Sequence record: MN850579.1
Source of the DNA: Escherichia phage mogra
Length of the DNA stretch: 64,000 nt
Strand: one strand, 5' to 3'
Below, piece after piece: positions 1,227 through 56,384 of the stretch (positions within the stretch are counted from its first letter, which is position 1; the number at the start of each line of letters is the position of its first letter). Both the position numbers and the translations under genes were made by a program. The notes beneath the pieces were generated by a model. That model did not search any database and was not told where the DNA came from. It saw nothing but the letters and a program-made list of their open reading frames with translations.

Positions 1227-1961
1227 ATGGAGCTAATCTTTTTAAGTGGCATCAAACGTAGTGGTAAAGACACTACTGCTGATTATATCAATTCAAACTT
1301 TAAATCCGTAAAATACCAATTAGCATATCCAATTAAAGACGCTCTAGCAATAGCCTGGGGACGTAGGCATGCTGAAGATCCTGATGTATTCACTGAGTTG
1401 AAATACGAATACTTTGAAGGCATTGGATACGACCGTGAAACACCATTAAATCTCAATAAGTTGGATGTTATTGAATTATTGGAAGAAGCGCTAATTTATT
1501 TGCAAAGCAAATATTTACCAATTAATAATGTTAAAGTATTATCATCGTTAGAAGGTGGATATTCGTATCTAGATATTAAACCATATGAAGCCATGCGTGA
1601 AGCTATAAATAATATCAACGACACATGGTCAATCCGCCGTCTTATGCAAGCCCTCGGTACGGATGTTGTCGTTAATTTATTTGACCGTATGTATTGGGTT
1701 AAGCTTTTTGCATTAAACTATATGGATTATATTGGAAGTGATTTCGATTACTATGTCGTAACCGATACACGTCAAGTCCATGAAATGGAAACCGCTAGAG
1801 CGATGGGTGCTACAGTTATTCATGTGGTTCGCTCTGGTACGGAATCCACCGATAAACATATTACAGAAGCTGGGTTGCCTATTGAAGAAGGCGATTTAGT
1901 TATTACAAACGACGGCTCTTTAGAAGAGCTTTATTCTAAAATTGAAACAATCTTAAGGTAA
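1227..1961 (+). CDS. 1: dNMP kinase gp1
   Basis: MELIFLSGIKRSGKDTTAD P-loop; near-identical to recalled T4 gp1 over N- and C-termini. Confidence 0.9.
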   Translation: MELIFLSGIKRSGKDTTADYINSNFKSVKYQLAYPIKDALAIAWGRRHAEDPDVFTELKYEYFEGIGYDRETPLNLNKLDVIELLEEALIYLQSKYLPINNVKVLSSLEGGYSYLDIKPYEAMREAINNINDTWSIRRLMQALGTDVVVNLFDRMYWVKLFALNYMDYIGSDFDYYVVTDTRQVHEMETARAMGATVIHVVRSGTESTDKHITEAGLPIEEGDLVITNDGSLEELYSKIETILR

Positions 1962-20365: not shown

Positions 20366-20947
20366 ATGGCTAGTTTAATTTTTACCTATGCCGCTATGAA
20401 CGCTGGTAAGTCTGCTTCATTACTTACTGCCGCACATAACTATAAAGAACGTGGCATGGGTGTATTAGTTCTTAAACCGGCTATTGATACTCGCGATTCA
20501 AAAGGTGAAATAGTCTCTCGTATTGGTATTCGTCAGGACGCCAATATAATTACAAAAGACATGGATATCTTTGAATTCTATAAATGGGCTGCAGCACAAA
20601 AGGATATTCACTGCGTATTTGTTGACGAAGCTCAGTTCTTAACTACTGAAAAGGTGTATCAACTTAGTCGTATTGTTGACGTATACAATGTGCCGGTAAT
20701 GGCATATGGACTACGAACAGATTTTAAAGGTAATCTATTTGAAGGTTCTCAAGCATTAATGGCTATTGCCGATAAGCTTGTTGAACTTAAAGGGGTCTGT
20801 CATTGCGGTAAAAAGGCCACAATGGTAGCTAGAGTCACGGAAGACGGACTTCCAATTACAGATGGCAGTCAAATTGAAATTGGTGATACTGATAGATATG
20901 TGTCATTATGCCGGAAGCATTGGAACGATTTGACAGGGTTGTTATAA
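20366..20947 (+). CDS. tk: thymidine kinase
   Basis: FTYAAMNAGKSASLL P-loop; VDEAQF; C-terminal CHCG..C zinc site. Confidence 0.92.
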   Translation: MASLIFTYAAMNAGKSASLLTAAHNYKERGMGVLVLKPAIDTRDSKGEIVSRIGIRQDANIITKDMDIFEFYKWAAAQKDIHCVFVDEAQFLTTEKVYQLSRIVDVYNVPVMAYGLRTDFKGNLFEGSQALMAIADKLVELKGVCHCGKKATMVARVTEDGLPITDGSQIEIGDTDRYVSLCRKHWNDLTGLL

Positions 20948-45807: not shown

Positions 45808-48519
45808 ATGAAAGAATTTTACTTAACGGTTGAACAGATTGGTGATTCAATTTTTGAACGTTACATCGATTCTAATGGCCGTGAACGTACTCGTGAAGTA
45901 GAATATAAACCATCACTGTTTGCTCATTGTCCAGAAAGTCAGGCTACGAAATATTTCGATATCTACGGTAAGCCGTGTACTCGTAAGCTGTTCGCTAATA
46001 TGCGTGATGCCTCCCAATGGATTAAACGCATGGAAGATATCGGACTTGAAGCACTTGGCATGGACGATTTCAAATTGGCGTATTTGTCTGACACTTATAA
46101 CTATGAAATCAAATACGACCATACAAAAATTCGTGTGGCTAACTTCGACATCGAAGTAACATCTCCGGATGGGTTCCCTGAGCCGTCACAAGCAAAACAT
46201 CCGATTGATGCTATCACCCATTATGACTCAATTGACGACAGGTTCTACGTATTTGATCTATTGAATTCTCCATATGGTAATGTAGAAGAATGGTCTATTG
46301 AAATCGCTGCTAAGCTTCAAGAACAAGGCGGTGATGAAGTTCCATCTGAAATTATCGATAAAATCATTTATATGCCGTTCGATAACGAAAAAGAATTGTT
46401 GATGGAATATCTCAACTTCTGGCAACAGAAAACTCCTGTCATTTTGACTGGATGGAACGTTGAGTCATTTGATATTCCATATGTGTATAACCGAATCAAG
46501 AATATTTTTGGCGAATCTACTGCGAAACGTTTATCGCCACATCGTAAAACTCGTGTTAAAGTTATCGAAAACATGTATGGTTCTCGTGAAATCATTACAT
46601 TGTTCGGTATCTCTGTTCTTGATTACATTGACCTTTACAAAAAATTCTCTTTTACCAATCAACCGTCGTATTCTCTGGATTACATTTCAGAATTTGAATT
46701 GAACGTTGGTAAACTGAAATATGACGGCCCTATTTCTAAACTTCGTGAAAGCAATCACCAACGATATATTTCTTATAACATTATCGATGTGTATCGTGTA
46801 TTGCAAATTGATGCTAAGCGTCAGTTCATCAACTTGAGTTTGGACATGGGTTATTATGCTAAGATACAGATTCAATCTGTGTTTAGCCCAATTAAAACAT
46901 GGGATGCTATTATTTTTAATAGCCTTAAAGAGCAGAACAAGGTGATTCCACAAGGTCGTTCTCACCCGGTTCAACCTTATCCTGGCGCTTTTGTTAAGGA
47001 ACCTATTCCAAATCGATACAAATATGTAATGAGTTTCGACCTTACATCTCTGTATCCAAGCATCATTCGCCAAGTGAATATTAGCCCAGAAACAATAGCA
47101 GGAACGTTTAAAGTAGCTCCATTACATGATTATATTAACGCAATCGCTGAACGTCCTTCAGATGTGTACAGTTGTTCTCCTAACGGCATGATGTATTATA
47201 AAGACCGTGATGGTGTAGTTCCAACTGAAATCACTAAGGTCTTTAATCAACGTAAAGAACATAAAGGTTACATGCTTGCAGCTCAACGTAATGGTGAAAT
47301 AATTAAAGAGGCATTGCATAATCCTAATCTTTCTGTTGACGAACCATTAGATGTTGATTATCGTTTCGACTTCAGCGATGAGATTAAAGAAAAGATTAAA
47401 AAGTTGTCTGCTAAATCTCTTAATGAAATGTTGTTTAGAGCTCAACGTACTGAAGTTGCAGGTATGACTGCACAAATTAACCGTAAATTGCTCATCAACT
47501 CACTTTATGGTGCACTTGGCAACGTTTGGTTCCGTTATTATGATTTGCGTAATGCTACTGCAATCACAACATTCGGGCAAATGGCTTTACAGTGGATTGA
47601 ACGTAAAGTTAATGAATATCTGAATGAAGTTTGTGGTACAGAAGGTGAAGCTTTCGTTCTTTATGGTGATACAGACTCCATTTACGTATCTGCGGATAAA
47701 ATTATTGATAAGGTTGGTGAATCTAAATTCCGTGATACTAACCATTGGGTAGACTTCTTAGATAAGTTCGCTCGTGAACGTATGGAACCTGCTATTGATA
47801 GAGGTTTCCGTGAAATGTGCGAATACATGAATAATAAGCAACATTTGATGTTCATGGACCGAGAAGCTATTGCTGGCCCTCCGCTCGGTTCTAAAGGTAT
47901 TGGTGGATTCTGGACTGGTAAGAAACGTTATGCATTAAACGTGTGGGATATGGAAGGCACTCGTTATGCTGAGCCTAAACTCAAAATCATGGGTCTAGAG
48001 ACTCAGAAATCTTCGACCCCTAAAGCAGTACAGAAAGCTCTTAAAGAATGTATTCGTCGTATGCTTCAAGAAGGTGAAGAATCATTACAAGAATATTTTA
48101 AAGAGTTTGAAAAAGAATTCCGTCAATTGAATTATATTAGCATCGCGTCGGTATCTTCTGCGAATAACATTGCTAAATATGATGTCGGTGGATTCCCTGG
48201 TCCCAAATGCCCGTTCCATATTCGTGGAATTCTGACGTATAACCGGGCTATCAAAGGTAATATCGATGCACCACAAGTTGTAGAAGGTGAAAAAGTATAT
48301 GTTCTGCCTTTACGTGAAGGAAACCCATTCGGTGATAAATGTATCGCATGGCCTTCTGGCACTGAAATAACAGATTTAATTAAAGACGACGTACTTCATT
48401 GGATGGACTACACTGTTCTCCTTGAGAAGACATTTATTAAACCACTTGAAGGATTCACATCAGCAGCGAAACTCGATTACGAGAAGAAAGCATCTCTGTT
48501 CGATATGTTCGATTTTTGA
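45808..48519 (+). CDS. 43: DNA polymerase gp43 (family B)
   Basis: 903 aa; exo motif FDIEV; pol motifs DxxSLYPS, KxxxNSxYG, YGDTDS; matches recalled RB69 gp43. Confidence 0.97.
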   Translation: MKEFYLTVEQIGDSIFERYIDSNGRERTREVEYKPSLFAHCPESQATKYFDIYGKPCTRKLFANMRDASQWIKRMEDIGLEALGMDDFKLAYLSDTYNYEIKYDHTKIRVANFDIEVTSPDGFPEPSQAKHPIDAITHYDSIDDRFYVFDLLNSPYGNVEEWSIEIAAKLQEQGGDEVPSEIIDKIIYMPFDNEKELLMEYLNFWQQKTPVILTGWNVESFDIPYVYNRIKNIFGESTAKRLSPHRKTRVKVIENMYGSREIITLFGISVLDYIDLYKKFSFTNQPSYSLDYISEFELNVGKLKYDGPISKLRESNHQRYISYNIIDVYRVLQIDAKRQFINLSLDMGYYAKIQIQSVFSPIKTWDAIIFNSLKEQNKVIPQGRSHPVQPYPGAFVKEPIPNRYKYVMSFDLTSLYPSIIRQVNISPETIAGTFKVAPLHDYINAIAERPSDVYSCSPNGMMYYKDRDGVVPTEITKVFNQRKEHKGYMLAAQRNGEIIKEALHNPNLSVDEPLDVDYRFDFSDEIKEKIKKLSAKSLNEMLFRAQRTEVAGMTAQINRKLLINSLYGALGNVWFRYYDLRNATAITTFGQMALQWIERKVNEYLNEVCGTEGEAFVLYGDTDSIYVSADKIIDKVGESKFRDTNHWVDFLDKFARERMEPAIDRGFREMCEYMNNKQHLMFMDREAIAGPPLGSKGIGGFWTGKKRYALNVWDMEGTRYAEPKLKIMGLETQKSSTPKAVQKALKECIRRMLQEGEESLQEYFKEFEKEFRQLNYISIASVSSANNIAKYDVGGFPGPKCPFHIRGILTYNRAIKGNIDAPQVVEGEKVYVLPLREGNPFGDKCIAWPSGTEITDLIKDDVLHWMDYTVLLEKTFIKPLEGFTSAAKLDYEKKASLFDMFDF

Positions 48520-48559
48520 TATAATGCCAAGGACGGCCAACTAATTAAATGAGAGAAAT

Positions 48560-49195
48560 ATGAAAACTACACCAATCACTATCGCTATTGACGCAATTGT
48601 AAAACAAGCTTCATCTCTTGCCACTATGGCTAAAGTAATTAGTCAAAACCATGCTCGTTATAATGCTATTCTAGAAACTCTTCGACGCCCTGGACTTAGT
48701 AATTATGAAAGCCGGGTAATTATTACAGGTGTTGGTAAGAATGCTAATATCGCAACTAAAGCTTCCGAGACTTTTGCTTCACTAGGTATTCCTAGCATGT
48801 ATTTGAATACCGGGCATTATTCTCATGGTGACGCAGGATTTATTGCACCTAATGATGTATTAGTTCACATCAGTCGTTCTGGTAAGACTGAAGAAATGAT
48901 AGGTGTTGCTAAACATCTTCGTATGATTCGTCCTCAGGTTAAACAGATTCTGTTACATTGTAACCCTGACATTCCACAAGAATACGAAGCTCTTTTTGAT
49001 TATACGTTCTGTACCGGTATCGCGGTAGAAGTTGACGAGAACTCTTTAGCTCCGACAATGTCTACTACATTGTTGTTAGCGCTTATCGATACGTTCGCTA
49101 TCAACCTTTCGTCTGAACGTGGATTTACCTCTAATGATTTCCTTAAGTTCCATCCAGGCGGTGCACTAGGTGCCATGTTACGAGGCGAACAATGA
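48560..49195 (+). CDS. SIS-domain sugar-phosphate isomerase, arabinose-5-phosphate isomerase-like
   Basis: ITGVGKNANIATKASETFASLGIP and ISRSGKTEE resemble KdsD/GutQ-type SIS motifs. Confidence 0.7.
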   Translation: MKTTPITIAIDAIVKQASSLATMAKVISQNHARYNAILETLRRPGLSNYESRVIITGVGKNANIATKASETFASLGIPSMYLNTGHYSHGDAGFIAPNDVLVHISRSGKTEEMIGVAKHLRMIRPQVKQILLHCNPDIPQEYEALFDYTFCTGIAVEVDENSLAPTMSTTLLLALIDTFAINLSSERGFTSNDFLKFHPGGALGAMLRGEQ

Positions 49196-49335
49196 AAGCA
49201 ATAACAATAGGACTTTTACTATTGATGCTTGCCATGACTATCTACTGGAGCTTAACGGCTCCGGTAATGATTCCAACACTTGTAATTGGATGGATTATGA
49301 TTGGACTACAAGCAAAGTATGAATGCTTTAACTAG
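49192..49335 (+). CDS. small membrane peptide (47 aa)
   Basis: ATGA overlap with SIS gene; one TM helix; not in ORF track. Confidence 0.35.
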   Translation: MKAITIGLLLLMLAMTIYWSLTAPVMIPTLVIGWIMIGLQAKYECFN

Positions 49336-49376
49336 AATAGTGTACAATACTCCTACTTACCAATGAGGACTTCAAC

Positions 49377-51062
49377 ATGAAAAAAGCTGTTATTCTTGGT
49401 GCTGGACTGGCAACTCGTTTGTATCCAATAACGCATCATATTCCTAAGGTGCTTGTGAACTATAAACAAGACACTATTCTGAGCAATTTGTATACAATTT
49501 ATTCTGACCTTGGCGCAGATGAAATTATTGTAGTAGTTCATTCAAAATTTGCTGAAACTGTTCGAGCTTATTGTGAGCAAGAAGGGTTCAATGTGACTAT
49601 TCGTACAGTTGATGAAGCGTATGGTTCTGCTTATGCTCTTGCTAAATTACACAAAGATTTAGACGGTCATAATGTAATTGTTAACTGGTGCGATATTATT
49701 CCTGATTTTGGTTCATGGTCTTGGAATGTTAACGCAATCTATGTTAAGGGTGATGAATGTCGATATAATTTCGACGGTGAAAATATCACTAACGTAGGTT
49801 CAACAGGTGGTAATGTTGTAGGAATTTATCAGTTCAAAGACTGGGAATTCTATATGGGTTCTACTGATGAGGAAATTCATGAATACTGCAAAGGACGTGA
49901 TTTCGTAGAATTCCTTTACAGCGCCGCATTCAATAAATCAGAGCTTATGAATCTAATTGATTTAGGTGATATGCCTAAACTTGAAAAGGCTCATGAAGTT
50001 CGTGAACTTAATCGTAGTTTTAACGCAGTTGAAATTGGTGAAGAAACTGTAACTAAATTCGCATTAACCGAACAGGGTCGAGCTCTTCAGAAAGATGAGA
50101 TTTCATGGTATTTGAAAGTGAAATCAGATTCAGTTCCTCAGTTAGTTTCTGTTAATGAAAATAACTTTGAAATGGAACGCATTAAAGGTAAGCCAGCATT
50201 TGAATATATTAAATCCAAATCAAGTCTTGCTCGTCCACAAATTGTTGATGCAATTTTAGATGCACTGAAATTCAGCACAGACACTTATTTTGTAAGTCCT
50301 GAAACTGTTCGTCGTGATTTCACTAAAGAATTCTATACGAAAGTTATTGATCGTTGTGAAAGCATTCAACCATTGATTGATTCATTTGGTAAAATCACGC
50401 ATGTGAACTACACTAAGATTGGACGTCTGAAGCCAATGCTGAAACAAGCTTTAGAACACCTTATTCGTTATCATAACCGTTCTCAGGGACAGTACTCTGT
50501 TATTCATGGCGACCCGAACTTCAGTAATACTATGATTACTGATAATGGCGAAGTCAAGTTTATCGACCCTCGTGGATATTTTGGTGAAACCAAGATTTAC
50601 GGGCCGAAATTGTACGACGAAGCTAAAGTGCTTTACGCTGTTTCAGGTTATGATGAATTCAACGCTAATCCGACCTGGGGGCAGTTTACTATTGATGAAA
50701 CAACTTGTAATGTGACTATTAACATCAATCCATTAGTTTACAAATATGGAAAGATGAGTTCGTTTAACGAGTATCATCATTTGGCAGTGGCAATTATCTG
50801 GATTGCATTAGGTGGTTATTTCAAGAATAATCCACTTAAAGCGGTAGCCGCATATTATAAAGGTATGGAACTTCTGACTAAGCAATTACGTAACATGGGC
50901 CGTGTACTTCAGGACGGCTCTATTAGTTATGACGTAGCAGAACCTGTAACGGCTACTCTGATTACAAAAAATCCTGGTAAGTGGGTACTAACTGATAAAG
51001 AAACTGGTGTTTCCTATCGTCCAATAGGTGGCGATATCACTCATCAATGGGAACGAATCTAA
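49377..51062 (+). CDS. bifunctional sugar-1-phosphate nucleotidyltransferase / APH-type kinase
   Basis: N-terminal ILGAGLATRL (GxGxR NTP-transferase motif); C-terminal HGDPNFSNTMI...IDPRGYFG (choline/aminoglycoside-kinase-like). Confidence 0.7.
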   Translation: MKKAVILGAGLATRLYPITHHIPKVLVNYKQDTILSNLYTIYSDLGADEIIVVVHSKFAETVRAYCEQEGFNVTIRTVDEAYGSAYALAKLHKDLDGHNVIVNWCDIIPDFGSWSWNVNAIYVKGDECRYNFDGENITNVGSTGGNVVGIYQFKDWEFYMGSTDEEIHEYCKGRDFVEFLYSAAFNKSELMNLIDLGDMPKLEKAHEVRELNRSFNAVEIGEETVTKFALTEQGRALQKDEISWYLKVKSDSVPQLVSVNENNFEMERIKGKPAFEYIKSKSSLARPQIVDAILDALKFSTDTYFVSPETVRRDFTKEFYTKVIDRCESIQPLIDSFGKITHVNYTKIGRLKPMLKQALEHLIRYHNRSQGQYSVIHGDPNFSNTMITDNGEVKFIDPRGYFGETKIYGPKLYDEAKVLYAVSGYDEFNANPTWGQFTIDETTCNVTININPLVYKYGKMSSFNEYHHLAVAIIWIALGGYFKNNPLKAVAAYYKGMELLTKQLRNMGRVLQDGSISYDVAEPVTATLITKNPGKWVLTDKETGVSYRPIGGDITHQWERI

Positions 51063-51448
51063 TGCACCGCGTAGAAAACATGCTTAATCTTTGTTTTGAT
51101 GTCGATGATTGTATAACAGAGTGGAATAACAATCGTGATTACGTGAACTTCAAGCCAGACGTCGAAATGGTGTCTGCCATTAATGCCCTGTATGATGCAG
51201 GGCATACCATAACGCTTTACACTGCTCGCGGTATGAAGTCAGTCGGTCCTGGTCGTATAGCAATTGACATTCTCCCAAGTCTGATTCAGAACTTGGCAAA
51301 CATTGGCTTGAAGTACCATAATTTGCTAACACATAAACCAGTATATGATTGGATTATCGACGACAAAGCTATGCGTCCTGACGAATTCAAAGCTCTTATG
51401 AATAAAGGCGAATTCGAAACATTTAAATCATATAAACCGAATCTATAA
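51062..51448 (+). CDS. HAD-superfamily phosphatase (small, capless)
   Basis: Motif I FDVDDCIT, motif II ITLYTAR, Lys and WIIDDKA motif IV; TAATG coupling to upstream gene. Confidence 0.6.
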   Translation: MHRVENMLNLCFDVDDCITEWNNNRDYVNFKPDVEMVSAINALYDAGHTITLYTARGMKSVGPGRIAIDILPSLIQNLANIGLKYHNLLTHKPVYDWIIDDKAMRPDEFKALMNKGEFETFKSYKPNL

Positions 51449-51508
51449 TAATTTAAGTAAGACCTGCAAAAAAAAACCATCGCATCAATTAACGCGAGAT
51501 GCAAAAAA

Positions 51509-52669
51509 ATGAATACTTTTAAAATCGGAACGAATTTTGATTTAGCTCTTCTTGATAAAATCGTAGAGCTCAATAAAACTTATCCTAATAGCTTGATAAA
51601 TGAAGTATACGGCTCTACAAGAGAAATGGCTTTTGTAGCAGCCAGACCTGATTTTAGGCTTCCTGACATTGACAAAAAGATGTTAGAAGATTATGTTAAA
51701 CGTTGTAACGAATTAGGTATTTGCTTTAACTATACACTCAACACGATAAATCCTGGTTCAAAAAGAGAACTAGTTGAGTGGAAGAAGAAAGCTATTCAGG
51801 ATTATGTTCAGTATCTTTGGTCAATAGGCGTATGGCGTATTACTATCGCTAACCCTGTTGTTATGGAAATTGTTCGTGAAGTCAATAAAGACATTGAGAT
51901 TGAAGTTTCAACAATTCTACATGTCGATGCTGTAACTCAAATCAAATACTTGCATGACCAGTATAATATCAAAAAGGTCTGCTGTGGAATTCATAAGAAC
52001 CGTTCAGTTTCTTTCCTGAAGCGTGCAGCAGAGTTTTGCAATAAGAACAATATAATATTTGAAGTTCTTGTAAATGAGTTCTGTTCTAATGCTGGTAAAG
52101 GGTATACAACACATTGTAGCTATCGTGACTCTTGCTATATTTTCCATAGTACTGATGTTACAGCTGATGATGCTAAATCCTTAAACGGATATCCAATGCA
52201 GCACTGTATTAAAGCTCGTGATACAGACCCATTTAACTGGTTGAGAACTCGTTTTGTTCGTCCTCAAGATTTGAAACTTTATAATGATATCGGTATCACT
52301 CAATTCAAAGTTTCAGGACGTACAGGTAGCACAGACTACATTTTGAAAGTTCTTGAAGCATACGCTTCTGAAAAGTTTGAAGGTAATTTGTTAGAACTGT
52401 GGAAGCCTTTAGAGACTATTTTCACTCTTGAAAACGAAACTGAGTTTTCACATACAGTAAATATTGAAACCTCTTTGTTAGATGGCTTTTTAGAAAAAAG
52501 GTGGTTCAGACATCCAGATTTCGATTGTGCTAATGAAATCTGCGGGACGACGTGTACATATTGTGAAAGATATTATAAACGTCAATTATCTAAAAACGGG
52601 TTAGCAGAAAACTCTATATCTATTATTGATATAACTAACTCTGATGACGCTTTGAGGTACCCGGAATGA
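51509..52669 (+). CDS. peptidase U32-family-like protein (family includes O2-independent hydroxylases)
   Basis: EVYGS, FVAARPDF..LEDYVKRCNELGICFNYTLN, NEFCSNAGKG..HCSY Cys-rich signature and FKVSGRTGS (compare KIEGR) resemble U32 family; by eye only. Confidence 0.35.
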   Translation: MNTFKIGTNFDLALLDKIVELNKTYPNSLINEVYGSTREMAFVAARPDFRLPDIDKKMLEDYVKRCNELGICFNYTLNTINPGSKRELVEWKKKAIQDYVQYLWSIGVWRITIANPVVMEIVREVNKDIEIEVSTILHVDAVTQIKYLHDQYNIKKVCCGIHKNRSVSFLKRAAEFCNKNNIIFEVLVNEFCSNAGKGYTTHCSYRDSCYIFHSTDVTADDAKSLNGYPMQHCIKARDTDPFNWLRTRFVRPQDLKLYNDIGITQFKVSGRTGSTDYILKVLEAYASEKFEGNLLELWKPLETIFTLENETEFSHTVNIETSLLDGFLEKRWFRHPDFDCANEICGTTCTYCERYYKRQLSKNGLAENSISIIDITNSDDALRYPE

Positions 52670-52905
52670 TTTCTAGAAAAACTTTTAACCACCGACTTAA
52701 TGAAGAGATTTTGACTATGAAACTGAACACTAATGAACAAATTCTTAAAAAGGCCCTGATGGGCCTGTTTGAAACTAAAGCGGCTAAAGTGATTAAAGAA
52801 CCTGTTCAATTGGAATACTACGCTGATGCATTTCTTCATAGTGTTCTTGGAAGTATCGATGCTGAATCTTTACGTTATATCAACATTGTCAAGAAATTCA
52901 AATAA
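52666..52905 (+). CDS. hypothetical protein
   Basis: ATGA overlap with U32-like gene. Confidence 0.5.
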   Translation: MISRKTFNHRLNEEILTMKLNTNEQILKKALMGLFETKAAKVIKEPVQLEYYADAFLHSVLGSIDAESLRYINIVKKFK

Positions 52906-52947
52906 GCTTTACGAATTGAGTATATAATAAATTGTATTGAGGTAAAC

Positions 52948-53664
52948 ATGGGAAAACATAACACAATGAAATATATCAAAGCCGCAGATTTTCAAACCGC
53001 ATTTAAAGCAGTCAATCGTGAAATTTTAGAAAACCCGGAATTCGTAACTGATTCTCGTATTGGACGTTGTAATGAAATTGGGTCTATGACAGTAGTTGTT
53101 GACACTCCATCATCATTCAAAATGACCGACCCACGTATTAACCGCATCTCTTATGAATATGCCGAAGACTTCTGGAAGTTTATGATTTCCGGTGGTACCA
53201 ACGCAGAAGAAGCGTTTAAGGCATATCCTAATGTCGCTAAATTTATTTCTAAACCAAAATCAGATGTTTTGCCGGCGAACTTCAACACTTTCTATGGTCC
53301 TCGCATTGCGGCCCAATTACCAGCTCTTCTAAAAGAACTTAAAGAGAAGCCTAACTCTCGAAGAGTTGTGTTCCAAATTCTAGAAAGTTCTGATCAGGCT
53401 TTGCTTGATTCGGACGAAACGCTTGAATATCCATGTACTGACTCAGTGACTTATTATATTCGTGATGGTAAGCTTTATACCCACTGTCATATGCGTTCTC
53501 AGAACTGTGCTGTTGTTATGCAGTTGGATTTTTATCTCCAAGGAAAATTACTTCATTATATCGCTAACGAATGTGGTGTAGAAGTTGGTGATTATACTCA
53601 TACCATGGTAAGTGCCCATGTGTTTGAACGTGATTTTGATTATGTTAAAGGATTCCTTGACTAA
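52948..53664 (+). CDS. 42: dCMP hydroxymethylase gp42 (thymidylate-synthase fold)
   Basis: TS-family motifs PNSRRVVFQ and EYPCTDSVTYY (catalytic Cys); position as T4 gene 42. Confidence 0.8.
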   Translation: MGKHNTMKYIKAADFQTAFKAVNREILENPEFVTDSRIGRCNEIGSMTVVVDTPSSFKMTDPRINRISYEYAEDFWKFMISGGTNAEEAFKAYPNVAKFISKPKSDVLPANFNTFYGPRIAAQLPALLKELKEKPNSRRVVFQILESSDQALLDSDETLEYPCTDSVTYYIRDGKLYTHCHMRSQNCAVVMQLDFYLQGKLLHYIANECGVEVGDYTHTMVSAHVFERDFDYVKGFLD

Positions 53665-54563
53665 TGGCTATTTTCCGCGTACCAATCTTGAGTATGCGGT
53701 CTTATGAAACTGGACAGTATGCTATCCTTAAGGATGGCAACTTCCAACTTCATTTGCACCGTGCTAATCCAGGCGATGTGATTACATATCCACGTAATGC
53801 ATCTGATATTAAAGAATGTGAACGTCTTTTCCCAGAATTTAAGTTTGTTCCATTATGGTATAAAGATAACGCGTATAACACTCGTAAATATTTCTGGTCC
53901 GAAAATGAATTTGTGGTTGATTCATTAATTGCTTATTATGATTGTGATTTTCTAATCACAGATATCACTGGATATAACGGCGCTTTTGATGTAGAATTCA
54001 ATTTCAATATCACGGCAGACCCTAATAAACCACGTTTTTATATTGGCGAATTCTTAAAAACCGATATGTTGTCAGTTAATAGTTCACTTCAAACTACTGT
54101 GTTGAATGAACGTCAAAAAGAAGTGCTGGTTAACGCAGGTGCAGATGGTAATAAGATTATCGTAACTCAGAAAGTTATACGTCCTTCCATCATGCAGCGT
54201 CTTGTAGGTGATTTGGCTCCTATTCATCTAGATGGTATTTTTCATCCATTTCGAATTAGTGACCCGTGCTATCGTTTTGAACAAGTGGTTGAATGTGCAA
54301 TTCAATTAGGCCAACCGCTTTATATAACCGATCCAAATAATAGCTTCGACAGAAATAAGTATCCTGAAGAAGCGCTGATTCGAATTTTTAAACCAACTAA
54401 AACTGAGTACTATCAAATTCTTAAAGGACGTCCGAAGATTCAATATTTCGAAAATCCTGAAGAAGTATTTCATCCAGGTCTTGGTGAGTTCATCTACTTT
54501 AATGCTTTAATTTCTTCGCCGTATAATATACCTAAATACGAAGATGTCGTAATCGAGGAATAA
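53664..54563 (+). CDS. hypothetical protein in the beta-gt position; candidate DNA sugar transferase
   Basis: TAATG coupling to gene 42; 299 aa; no resemblance to recalled T4 beta-gt. Confidence 0.5.
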   Translation: MAIFRVPILSMRSYETGQYAILKDGNFQLHLHRANPGDVITYPRNASDIKECERLFPEFKFVPLWYKDNAYNTRKYFWSENEFVVDSLIAYYDCDFLITDITGYNGAFDVEFNFNITADPNKPRFYIGEFLKTDMLSVNSSLQTTVLNERQKEVLVNAGADGNKIIVTQKVIRPSIMQRLVGDLAPIHLDGIFHPFRISDPCYRFEQVVECAIQLGQPLYITDPNNSFDRNKYPEEALIRIFKPTKTEYYQILKGRPKIQYFENPEEVFHPGLGEFIYFNALISSPYNIPKYEDVVIEE

Positions 54564-54564
54564 A

Positions 54565-55113
54565 ATGGCTAAAATTATTTTAGTAGATGGCCCGGATAAT
54601 GCCGGTAAAACAACTTTCATTAATGACATAATGGAAATTAGTGAAAGATATGTAAAGATTGATTTCCCTAAACGAACAGTTGATGGACGTTTCGATGTTA
54701 AGTCTCGAAATGAAGTTGGTTGTTTCGAAACGATGTTGAATTATTTAGACCCTACTAAGATTTATCTGTTAGACCGTGGATATATTAGTAACTGGGTTTA
54801 TGGACGTATTCGACAAGATGCGGACTCTGTTCTTGATGTTTATGAGCAGGATTATGTTCGTCTTTGCCAAAACCATGATGTGTTCACAATTATTTTAACA
54901 CGTAACGAAATGACTGAAAGTTTTGAAGACGACCTTATTACTTTGTCTTCATTCGGTTTTAATACAGTCATTTCACATTTTGAAGAGTTTGCAATTCATA
55001 ACAAAATCCAAACGTATCAATTACTTAATCATGATGGTGCTAACAAAGTTATAGGATTTAATGCAAGCGAACGTAATGGTTTGATTACAGAAATCATCAA
55101 ATGGGCTCGTTAA
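54565..55113 (+). CDS. P-loop kinase (nucleotide or sugar kinase-like)
   Basis: Walker A VDGPDNAGKTT; LDRGY (DRY-like) motif; 182 aa. Confidence 0.6.
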   Translation: MAKIILVDGPDNAGKTTFINDIMEISERYVKIDFPKRTVDGRFDVKSRNEVGCFETMLNYLDPTKIYLLDRGYISNWVYGRIRQDADSVLDVYEQDYVRLCQNHDVFTIILTRNEMTESFEDDLITLSSFGFNTVISHFEEFAIHNKIQTYQLLNHDGANKVIGFNASERNGLITEIIKWAR

Positions 55114-55133
55114 GAGCCATTTAAAGTTTTAAA

Positions 55134-55158
55134 TGCTGTATAACCCTTAGTATATAAT
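55134..55158 (+). promoter_or_regulatory. candidate middle promoter for uvsX
   Basis: MotA-box variant TGCTGTA, 12 nt spacer, TATAAT 55153. Confidence 0.4.
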
Positions 55159-55211
55159 CGTCTTATCTTTTAAACATGAGTAAAATATAATGATGCCTAT
55201 GGAAAAATACA

Positions 55212-56384
55212 ATGTCTGATTTAAAATCTCGTCTGATTAAAGCTTCTACTTCTAAAATGACTGCAGACTTGACTAAGTCTAAGCTGTTTAATAATCGTGA
55301 TGAAGTCCCTACTCGTATTCCGATGTTGAATATCGCACTAGGTGGTGCTCTGAATGCAGGATTGCAATCAGGCTTGACTATTTTTGCTGCACCTTCTAAA
55401 CATTTTAAAACATTGTTTGGACTGACCATGGTTGCAGCATATATGAAGAAATATAAAGATGCAATTTGTTTGTTCTATGATTCGGAATTTGGTGCTTCAG
55501 AATCTTATTTTCGATCAATGGGTGTTGATTTAGACCGAGTAGTTCATACTCCGATTCAATCTGTCGAACAACTTAAAGTTGATATGACTAATCAGCTTGA
55601 CGCGATTGAACGCGGCGATAAAGTTATTATCTTTATCGATTCAATCGGTAATACTGCATCTAAGAAAGAAACCGAAGATGCGTTGAACGAGAAAGTTGTA
55701 GGTGATATGTCTCGTGCTAAGGCACTTAAATCTCTTTTCCGTATTGTGACTCCTTATCTGACTATTAAAGATATTCCATGTGTTGCAATCAACCATACAG
55801 CAATGGAAATTGGCGGATTGTATCCTAAAGAGATTATGGGCGGCGGTACAGGTATTCTTTACTCGGCTAACACTGTATTCTTTATCTCTAAACGTCAGGT
55901 TAAAGATGGCACTGAATTGACCGGTTATGACTTCACGTTGAAAGCAGAAAAATCTCGCACAGTTAAAGAGAAATCTACTTTCCCAATCACAGTTAATTTT
56001 GATGGTGGTATCGACCCATTCAGTGGCTTGTTAGAAATGGCAACTGAAATTGGATTTGTTGTTAAGCCTAAAGCCGGTTGGTATGCTCGTGAATTCCTTG
56101 ACGAAGAAACAGGCGAAATGATTCGTGAAGAGAAATCGTGGCGTGCTAAAGCTACTGATTGTGTAGAATTCTGGGGACCGTTGTTTAAACACAAACCTTT
56201 CCGAGATGCAATTGAAACTAAATATAAACTAGGTGCTATCTCTTCTATTAAAGAAGTTGATGACGCTGTTAACGACCTTATTAATTGCAAAGCAACAACT
56301 AAAGTTCCTGTTAAAACTTCTGATGCTCCGTCTGCAGCAGATATAGAAAACGACCTTGACGAAATGGAAGATTTCGATGAATAA
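55212..56384 (+). CDS. uvsX: recombinase UvsX (RecA-like)
   Basis: 390 aa; P-loop FAAPSKHFKT; T4 synteny. Confidence 0.93.
   Translation: MSDLKSRLIKASTSKMTADLTKSKLFNNRDEVPTRIPMLNIALGGALNAGLQSGLTIFAAPSKHFKTLFGLTMVAAYMKKYKDAICLFYDSEFGASESYFRSMGVDLDRVVHTPIQSVEQLKVDMTNQLDAIERGDKVIIFIDSIGNTASKKETEDALNEKVVGDMSRAKALKSLFRIVTPYLTIKDIPCVAINHTAMEIGGLYPKEIMGGGTGILYSANTVFFISKRQVKDGTELTGYDFTLKAEKSRTVKEKSTFPITVNFDGGIDPFSGLLEMATEIGFVVKPKAGWYAREFLDEETGEMIREEKSWRAKATDCVEFWGPLFKHKPFRDAIETKYKLGAISSIKEVDDAVNDLINCKATTKVPVKTSDAPSAADIENDLDEMEDFDE

Follow-up and report, generated by a model that had tools for sequence, protein, structure and literature searches.

The stretch analysed here comprises 64,000 nucleotides of Escherichia phage mogra DNA (MN850579.1; hereafter the window), in which two adjacent genes, both with an ATG start in the open reading frame (ORF) listing, encode a 299-amino-acid (aa) predicted glycosyltransferase (53664..54563, + strand) and a 182-aa P-loop kinase (54565..55113, + strand). 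They are preceded by the gene of a 238-aa thymidylate synthase homologue (52948..53664, + strand) and followed by uvsX (55212..56384), gene 40 and gene 41, and the 299-aa gene lies, as had been proposed, in the slot that is occupied by the beta-glucosyltransferase gene (beta-gt) in T4. The three genes are tightly packed: the TAA of the 238-aa gene (53662-53664) shares a base with the ATG of the 299-aa gene (53664-53666) in a TAATG overlap, the stop codon of the latter (54561-54563) is separated by a single base from the kinase ATG at 54565, and the Shine-Dalgarno sequence of the kinase gene, GAGGA, sits within the final codons of the 299-aa gene. The original prediction had read these ORF positions and the TAATG coupling correctly, and the same is true of the P-loop and the LDRGY motif of the kinase.

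The window comes from an RB69-like Mosigvirus, with 98% nucleotide identity to RB69. Its 1450-bp two-gene stretch matches 153 Mosigvirus records at 98-99% identity, RB69 and Bas46 (ChristianSchoenbein) among them, and a tblastn search of phage records recovers the transferase in 348 and the kinase in 343, with the same distribution over genera. This conservation, together with the confidence of the AlphaFold2 models of both proteins, rules out chance ORFs. The RB69 record (NC_004928.1) contains an additional T near window position ~54208, as a result of which the 299-aa gene appears there as two ORFs, ORF047c and ORF046c; other Mosigviruses and the window do not have this T, and the split has been put down to a sequencing error (Lee et al., PMC13326640). 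A 561-aa gene further upstream is also split in the RB69 record (ORF053c/052c). A promoter and terminator scan of positions 48400-55400 gave counts not above those in shuffled sequence, and it contained no terminator-like site on the + strand past 50499, a span that starts at the end of the 561-aa gene and takes in the kinase gene, which is compatible with a single transcription unit but does not prove one.

The gene upstream of the pair had been taken for gene 42, and 5-hydroxymethylcytosine (hmC) for the acceptor base. However, the 238-aa protein is 99% identical to RB69 gp48 and ~98% identical to PDB entries 9iqc/9ir2/9iqu, compared with 25% identity to T4 gp42, and it carries RSQN in place of the T4 RSND, which is the diagnostic D169N change, while its D194 corresponds to N177D. 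On these sequence grounds it is assigned as a flavin/O2-dependent deoxycytidine monophosphate (dCMP) 5-hydroxylase, that is, a synthase of 5-hydroxy-dCMP (5hodCMP), and not as a gene 42-type hydroxymethylase. RB69 gp48 has been demonstrated to be such a flavin/O2-dependent dCMP 5-hydroxylase in vivo by 18O2 labelling, and RB69-type DNA contains 5-hydroxycytosine (5hoC) bearing one or two arabinofuranoses via an ether bond (PMC13326640); in the earlier view, RB69 DNA carried arabinosyl-hmC and ORF003c was the candidate transferase (PMC6024577). The acceptor in the window phage would therefore be 5hoC rather than hmC, and the sugar would be arabinofuranose.

Identification of the 299-aa protein came from fold comparison alone, the sequence searches being blank. 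The protein has no Pfam or NCBIfam match at E <= 1, its sequence alone gives no PDB match, a profile of 58 sequences of its family finds no glycosyltransferase among PDB sequences, and PHROGs carries the family as of unknown function. An exhaustive profile search gathered only 231 relatives among 1.84 billion representatives, which indicates that the family does not merge with GT4 at the sequence level. The AlphaFold2 model, built on an alignment of 58 homologues with identities down to 33%, has a predicted local distance difference test score (pLDDT) of 95.2 and a predicted template modelling score (pTM) of 0.90, and displays the two Rossmann-like beta/alpha/beta domains and the interdomain cleft of the GT-B fold; the confident fold is thus of a transferase type. 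Judged by this model, the protein is confidently predicted to be a compact GT-B glycosyltransferase, hence the proposal that it is the transferase of the pathway held, while the proposed acceptor, hmC, has to give way to 5hoC.

The 299-aa protein is the orthologue of RB69 gp46:47 (98% identity) and DLP3 gp79 (46% identity), the predicted 'arabinosyltransferase 1', from which it does not differ in any substantive way, and in almost every locus its gene adjoins that of the thymidylate synthase homologue, as expected for arabinosyltransferase 1. The published role, which is itself a structure-based prediction, is that of the base-proximal, alpha arabinofuranosyltransferase acting on 5hoC (Lee et al., PMC13326640). 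By our own family assignment, the folds closest to the model would be GT4-type retaining transferases, in agreement with a base-proximal arabinose that is alpha-linked. In the C-terminal domain R197 and K246 are invariant and are putative counterparts of the Arg/Lys pair that binds the donor diphosphate in GT4 enzymes. A homologue of T4 beta-gt was considered and ruled out, there being no sequence similarity between the two proteins (E 3), and on this point the original prediction was right. The alpha- and beta-glucosyltransferases of T4 are also GT-B enzymes that decorate a cytosine C5 substituent; however, they are 351 and 400 aa long, their acceptor is hmC where a direct ether to the ring of 5hoC is predicted here, and their donor is UDP-glucose where UDP-arabinofuranose (UDP-Araf) is predicted here.

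The 182-aa protein (RB69 gp45, DLP3 gp78) belongs to the thymidylate kinase superfamily. Its P-loop (G9-P-D-N-A-G-K-T16) and its L69-D-R-G-Y73 segment agree with the thymidylate kinase P-loop (G-x-[DE]-x-x-G-K-[ST]-T) and DR motif, with G as the third residue of the latter, it matches PHROG 761 "thymidylate kinase" at E 5.7e-45, and its AlphaFold2 model (pLDDT 87.4) has a nucleoside monophosphate kinase fold that is closest to thymidylate kinases. The protein itself reaches no Pfam threshold and does not match PF02223 at E <= 1, but 13 of 15 diverse family members match this model weakly (best 9.6e-6). The profile of these 15 members matches the SPbeta prophage protein YorR at 4.4e-8 and thymidylate kinases at 2e-7 and weaker, and the family profile finds vaccinia thymidylate kinase at E 2.5e-7. 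Across 41 homologues, G9, D11, G14, K15, FPK, D70-R71, S75-N76 and R113 are invariant, and so is an unusual acidic F120-x-D-D in the LID region, where a basic LID is expected in thymidylate kinases. Besides this LID, the protein differs from thymidylate kinases and YorR by a deletion of ~20 residues, which falls in what we take to be their base-binding segment, and by E50 in place of Arg. In the profile alignment, N49-E50 lies opposite the N-R pair of the yeast and Candida thymidylate kinases, whose Arg presumably contacts O4 of thymine; a Glu at this position would suit the amino group of cytosine, although conservation of this region is low across the family at large. A 5-substituted dCMP is the probable substrate.

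A T4 gp1-type deoxynucleoside monophosphate kinase (1227..1961; PF21448, E 1.9e-96) and Tk (20366..20947; PF00265) are encoded elsewhere in the window, therefore the 182-aa kinase is an additional one, as originally noted. A duplicate of gp1 is ruled out, since there is no similarity between the two kinases (E 1.1). Two candidate roles had been put forward, that of a modified-nucleotide kinase and that of a gluconate/shikimate-type sugar kinase; the first fits better with a member of the thymidylate kinase superfamily, while the gluconate/shikimate family is not the closest to the protein in either fold or sequence.

Further information comes from the linkage of these genes across viruses, which was assessed in 49 loci that contain a transferase relative; IMG/VR supplied 46 of these, and the others are the RB69 reference record and two jumbo-phage contigs. 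A kinase gene lies within 3 kb of the transferase relative in 46 of the 49 loci, directly downstream in 34 and upstream in 12, and two of the three loci that lack it end at the end of the transferase gene. The transferase-kinase linkage holds in both jumbo-phage contigs (356 and 383 kb), and the triad of hydroxylase, transferase and kinase is also present in Rhizobium phage RL38J1, a hexose user (PMC13326640). In an environmental clade the genes are ordered Flavodoxin_2, hydroxylase, transferase and kinase, with no arabinose-activation genes within 6 kb. The retention of the triad in the absence of such genes suggests that the kinase is tied to the base and not to the sugar.

The position of the kinase gene varies between loci. 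In the Dhakavirus type (L012-L016, L022) it is found between the HAD phosphatase and hydroxylase genes, and in L006-L008, L026 and L027 it lies upstream, adjoining the HAD gene. The sole clear exception to the triad is a 10.5-kb viral contig (L049, 3615-5251), in which a distant thymidylate synthase homologue (31%) adjoins a distant relative of the transferase (26%) and no kinase gene is present within 4-5 kb on either side.

The transferase and the kinase are also found fused. In seven members of the transferase family a kinase-like domain comes after the transferase, in one member it comes first, and the fused domain is homologous to the 182-aa kinase family (hhalign probability 96.5%, E 8.7e-10). 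Other fusions join an N-terminal HAD phosphatase domain to the transferase, which indicates that fusion reflects a shared pathway and not necessarily a shared substrate. The fusions of the two kinds comprise P0259, P0283, P0238, P0257, P0263, P0280, P0262 and P0254; P0165, P0175, P0177, P0189, P0192, P0179 and P0251; and L055 and L057. Most of the fused kinase domains have GFDRIGKD as their P-loop and TR in place of the DR motif, and may therefore be altered or inactive.

The gene cluster and both predicted roles are already published, and the present finding is a re-discovery: for the two genes, which the original prediction regarded as unassigned, Lee et al. 2026 already give predicted functions in their Table 1 (PMC13326640). 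There, gp45 and gp78 are listed as 'nucleotide kinase' without discussion (PMC13326640); the Mosigvirus proteins are 98-100% identical and share the thymidylate kinase-like fold. The retention of the triad in 46 of the 49 viral loci and the transferase-kinase fusions in both orders are new here.

Taken together, the two genes are likely to be the last two of an arabinosyl-5-hydroxycytosine hypermodification cluster, in which the genes of hydroxylase, transferase and kinase would make up a portable module of three that generates the base, activates it and decorates it. In this pathway, the thymidylate synthase homologue would hydroxylate dCMP at C5, as demonstrated for the 99%-identical RB69 gp48, and the 182-aa enzyme, as the kinase of the module itself, would convert the 5-substituted dCMP to the diphosphate. 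The triphosphate would then be made by the host nucleoside diphosphate kinase and incorporated by the phage polymerase. Subsequently, the 299-aa GT-B enzyme would move the first alpha-D-arabinofuranose from UDP-Araf to the 5-OH of the base, a step suggested by fold, orthology and synteny, whereas the second arabinose would be added by a GT4-like transferase encoded elsewhere (the RB69 gp3 homologue). The SIS isomerase, nucleotidyltransferase/APH kinase and HAD phosphatase, whose genes lie just upstream, would supply UDP-Araf. The roles predicted by Lee et al. 2026 agree with this pathway (PMC13326640).

Several observations weigh against it. No Pfam glycosyltransferase model matches the 299-aa protein, and the EX7E motif of GT4 is incomplete, since E275 is kept (E in 51 and D in 7 of the 58 sequences) while position 267, eight residues earlier, is mostly T or K; H270-P271-G272 is invariant in the same sequences. 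With half of EX7E conserved, the motif does not settle GT4 membership or mechanism. Individual DLP3 transferases supplied with UDP-Araf or UDP-arabinopyranose (UDP-Arap) gave no arabinosylation of 5hoC DNA (PMC13326640), and the homologue from phage Thanatos (47% identity) was reported to make UDP-xylose and not to glycosylate DNA, dCMP, dCTP or cytosine (PMC12838424). In the literature found, no enzymatic activity is reported for either the 299-aa or the 182-aa protein. As for the kinase, T4 gp1 activates modified dCMP in T-even phages. Its RB69 homologue, gp159, converts 5hodCMP to 5hodCDP, with gp48 and gp159 being sufficient for the appearance of 5hoC in E. coli DNA (PMC13326640); a second 5hodCMP kinase thus looks redundant in the window phage.

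The Thanatos protein, TH1_063, is reported to have made UDP-xylose from UTP and xylose-1-phosphate in vitro without any transfer (PMC12838424), which raises the question of whether the 299-aa protein instead produces the sugar donor as a UDP-pentose pyrophosphorylase. This is highly improbable, as the fold is GT-B and not that of a nucleotidyltransferase, and a genuine nucleotidyltransferase domain is present in the 561-aa protein, whose homologue AfhE is cited as a UDP-arabinose pyrophosphorylase (PMC13326640). Moreover, the acceptors offered to TH1_063 had no 5-OH, hence the negative transfer result says little, and contaminating host activity was not excluded in this assay as far as the text shows (PMC12838424).

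The redundancy of the kinase and the inactivity of the first-step transferases towards 5hoC DNA are also relevant to another order of events, in which the 299-aa transferase arabinosylates 5hodCMP, the 182-aa kinase is dedicated to the resulting Araf-5hodCMP, which a gp1-type kinase would refuse as too bulky, and the polymerase takes up a glycosylated dCTP analogue; DNA would then be the acceptor of the second arabinose only. Such an order would explain why a second kinase is kept in addition to the gp1-type one, why the individual transferases were inactive on 5hoC DNA (the authors themselves cannot distinguish a nucleotide from a DNA acceptor; PMC13326640) and why Thanatos cannot do without its sugar-activating enzyme, although the lethality of this loss is compatible with the proposed order without proving it. 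The translational coupling of transferase and kinase, their near-constant adjacency and their fusion in both domain orders point in the same direction, yet the HAD-transferase fusions imply a common pathway more than a common substrate. The folds closest to the transferase include enzymes with phosphorylated small acceptors, namely sucrose-phosphate synthase and trehalose-6-phosphate synthase, and the invariant acidic F-x-D-D in the LID of the kinase differs from the basic LID that we assume for thymidylate kinases. The transferase family is acidic, with a median isoelectric point (pI) of 5.26 and a pI of <7 in 56 of 58 members; however, DLP3 gp77, which acts on DNA, is likewise acidic (pI 5.68), therefore pI does not discriminate between a DNA and a nucleotide acceptor. 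Against this order of events, glycosylation in T4 comes after replication, DLP3 gp76 and gp77 both act on DNA (PMC13326640), and direct evidence for the use of a glycosylated deoxynucleoside triphosphate by the polymerase is lacking. The redundancy is explained more simply by a portable module that brings its own 5hodCMP kinase, and we regard arabinosylation of the nucleotide as a rather unlikely alternative to transfer onto DNA.

It is very doubtful that the 182-aa protein is a gluconate/shikimate-type sugar kinase or that, like the 5-hydroxymethyluracil (5-hmU) DNA kinases, it acts on DNA and phosphorylates the base at its 5-OH. Its profile matches are thymidylate kinases and YorR, it has the acidic P-loop residue, the FPK and the DR motif of the thymidylate kinase type, and the role of a sugar kinase is already taken by the APH-like domain of the 561-aa protein. 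In addition, the kinase is kept with hydroxylase and transferase in the clade without nearby arabinose genes, and a transferase that uses a UDP-sugar requires no activation of its acceptor.

Arabinosyl-5-hydroxycytosine shields many T4-like phages, some of them candidates for therapy, against restriction enzymes and CRISPR systems that target DNA, and the transferase and the kinase are the least characterised steps of its synthesis, the first sugar transfer never having been reconstituted. The kinase travels with hydroxylase and transferase across very distant viruses, yet it has no stated role. Knowledge of what the two enzymes act on would show whether phages can build glycosylated DNA from a glycosylated nucleotide, and would also yield enzymes for the production of glycosylated DNA in vitro.

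The genes proposed to supply the sugar donor are on the + strand upstream of the hydroxylase gene. The first of them encodes a 211-aa SIS-domain arabinose-5-phosphate isomerase (48560..49195; RB69 gp55), identified by PF01380, the RB69 annotation and PMC13326640. It is followed by the gene of the 561-aa bifunctional sugar nucleotidyltransferase/APH-like kinase (49377..51062; RB69 gp52:53, a homologue of HY126 AfhE), which matches PF00483 and PF12804 in its N-terminal part and, weakly, APH-like kinases at residues 308-409, and whose homologue makes UDP-arabinofuranose (as cited in PMC13326640). The next gene encodes a 133-aa HAD-like phosphatase (51047..51448; RB69 gp51, an AfhF homologue; PHROG 1238), for which a conversion of Araf-1,5-bisphosphate to Araf-1-phosphate is proposed (as cited in PMC13326640).

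In the environmental clade, a gene for a Flavodoxin_2 protein, which resembles NAD(P)H:FMN reductases, lies directly 5' of the hydroxylase homologue (L002 6426-6932; L003 1-523; L032, L033, L035-L037, L039-L041, L043, L045 and L050). This placement fits a flavin reductase partner of the flavin-dependent hydroxylase; no homologue of the gene is present in the window.

Upstream of the hydroxylase gene, the window also encodes a 386-aa protein of the peptidase U32 family (51509..52669, + strand; RB69 gp50; PF01136, E 7e-11), in which 11 of 13 Cys residues are invariant across 19 homologues, including C340-x4-C-x3-C-x2-C352. Lee et al. list gp50 only as a 'sugar or heterocycle reductase', without discussion (PMC13326640). 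Characterised members of the U32 family act as O2-independent hydroxylases: RlhA forms 5-hydroxycytidine in 23S rRNA (PMC5727448), TrhP forms 5-hydroxyuridine in tRNA (PMC6599085), and UbiU/V function in anaerobic ubiquinone synthesis (PMC6747719, PMC10990095). The phage protein might act as a cytosine C5-hydroxylase under anaerobic conditions, as a backup for the O2-dependent enzyme. Its sequence shares 47% identity with the product of a gene that adjoins the kinase and transferase genes in three loci without a nearby thymidylate synthase homologue (L048 5783-6862; L055 10179-11276; L056 2681-3778). The Dhakavirus and Acinetobacter-phage loci are without a U32 gene. Between the U32 and hydroxylase genes lies a small ORF of 79 aa (52666..52905, + strand; RB69 ORF049c; PHROG 8601, E 4.8e-51), which overlaps the end of the U32 gene and is kept in Mosigviruses and in Yersinia and Pectobacterium phages.

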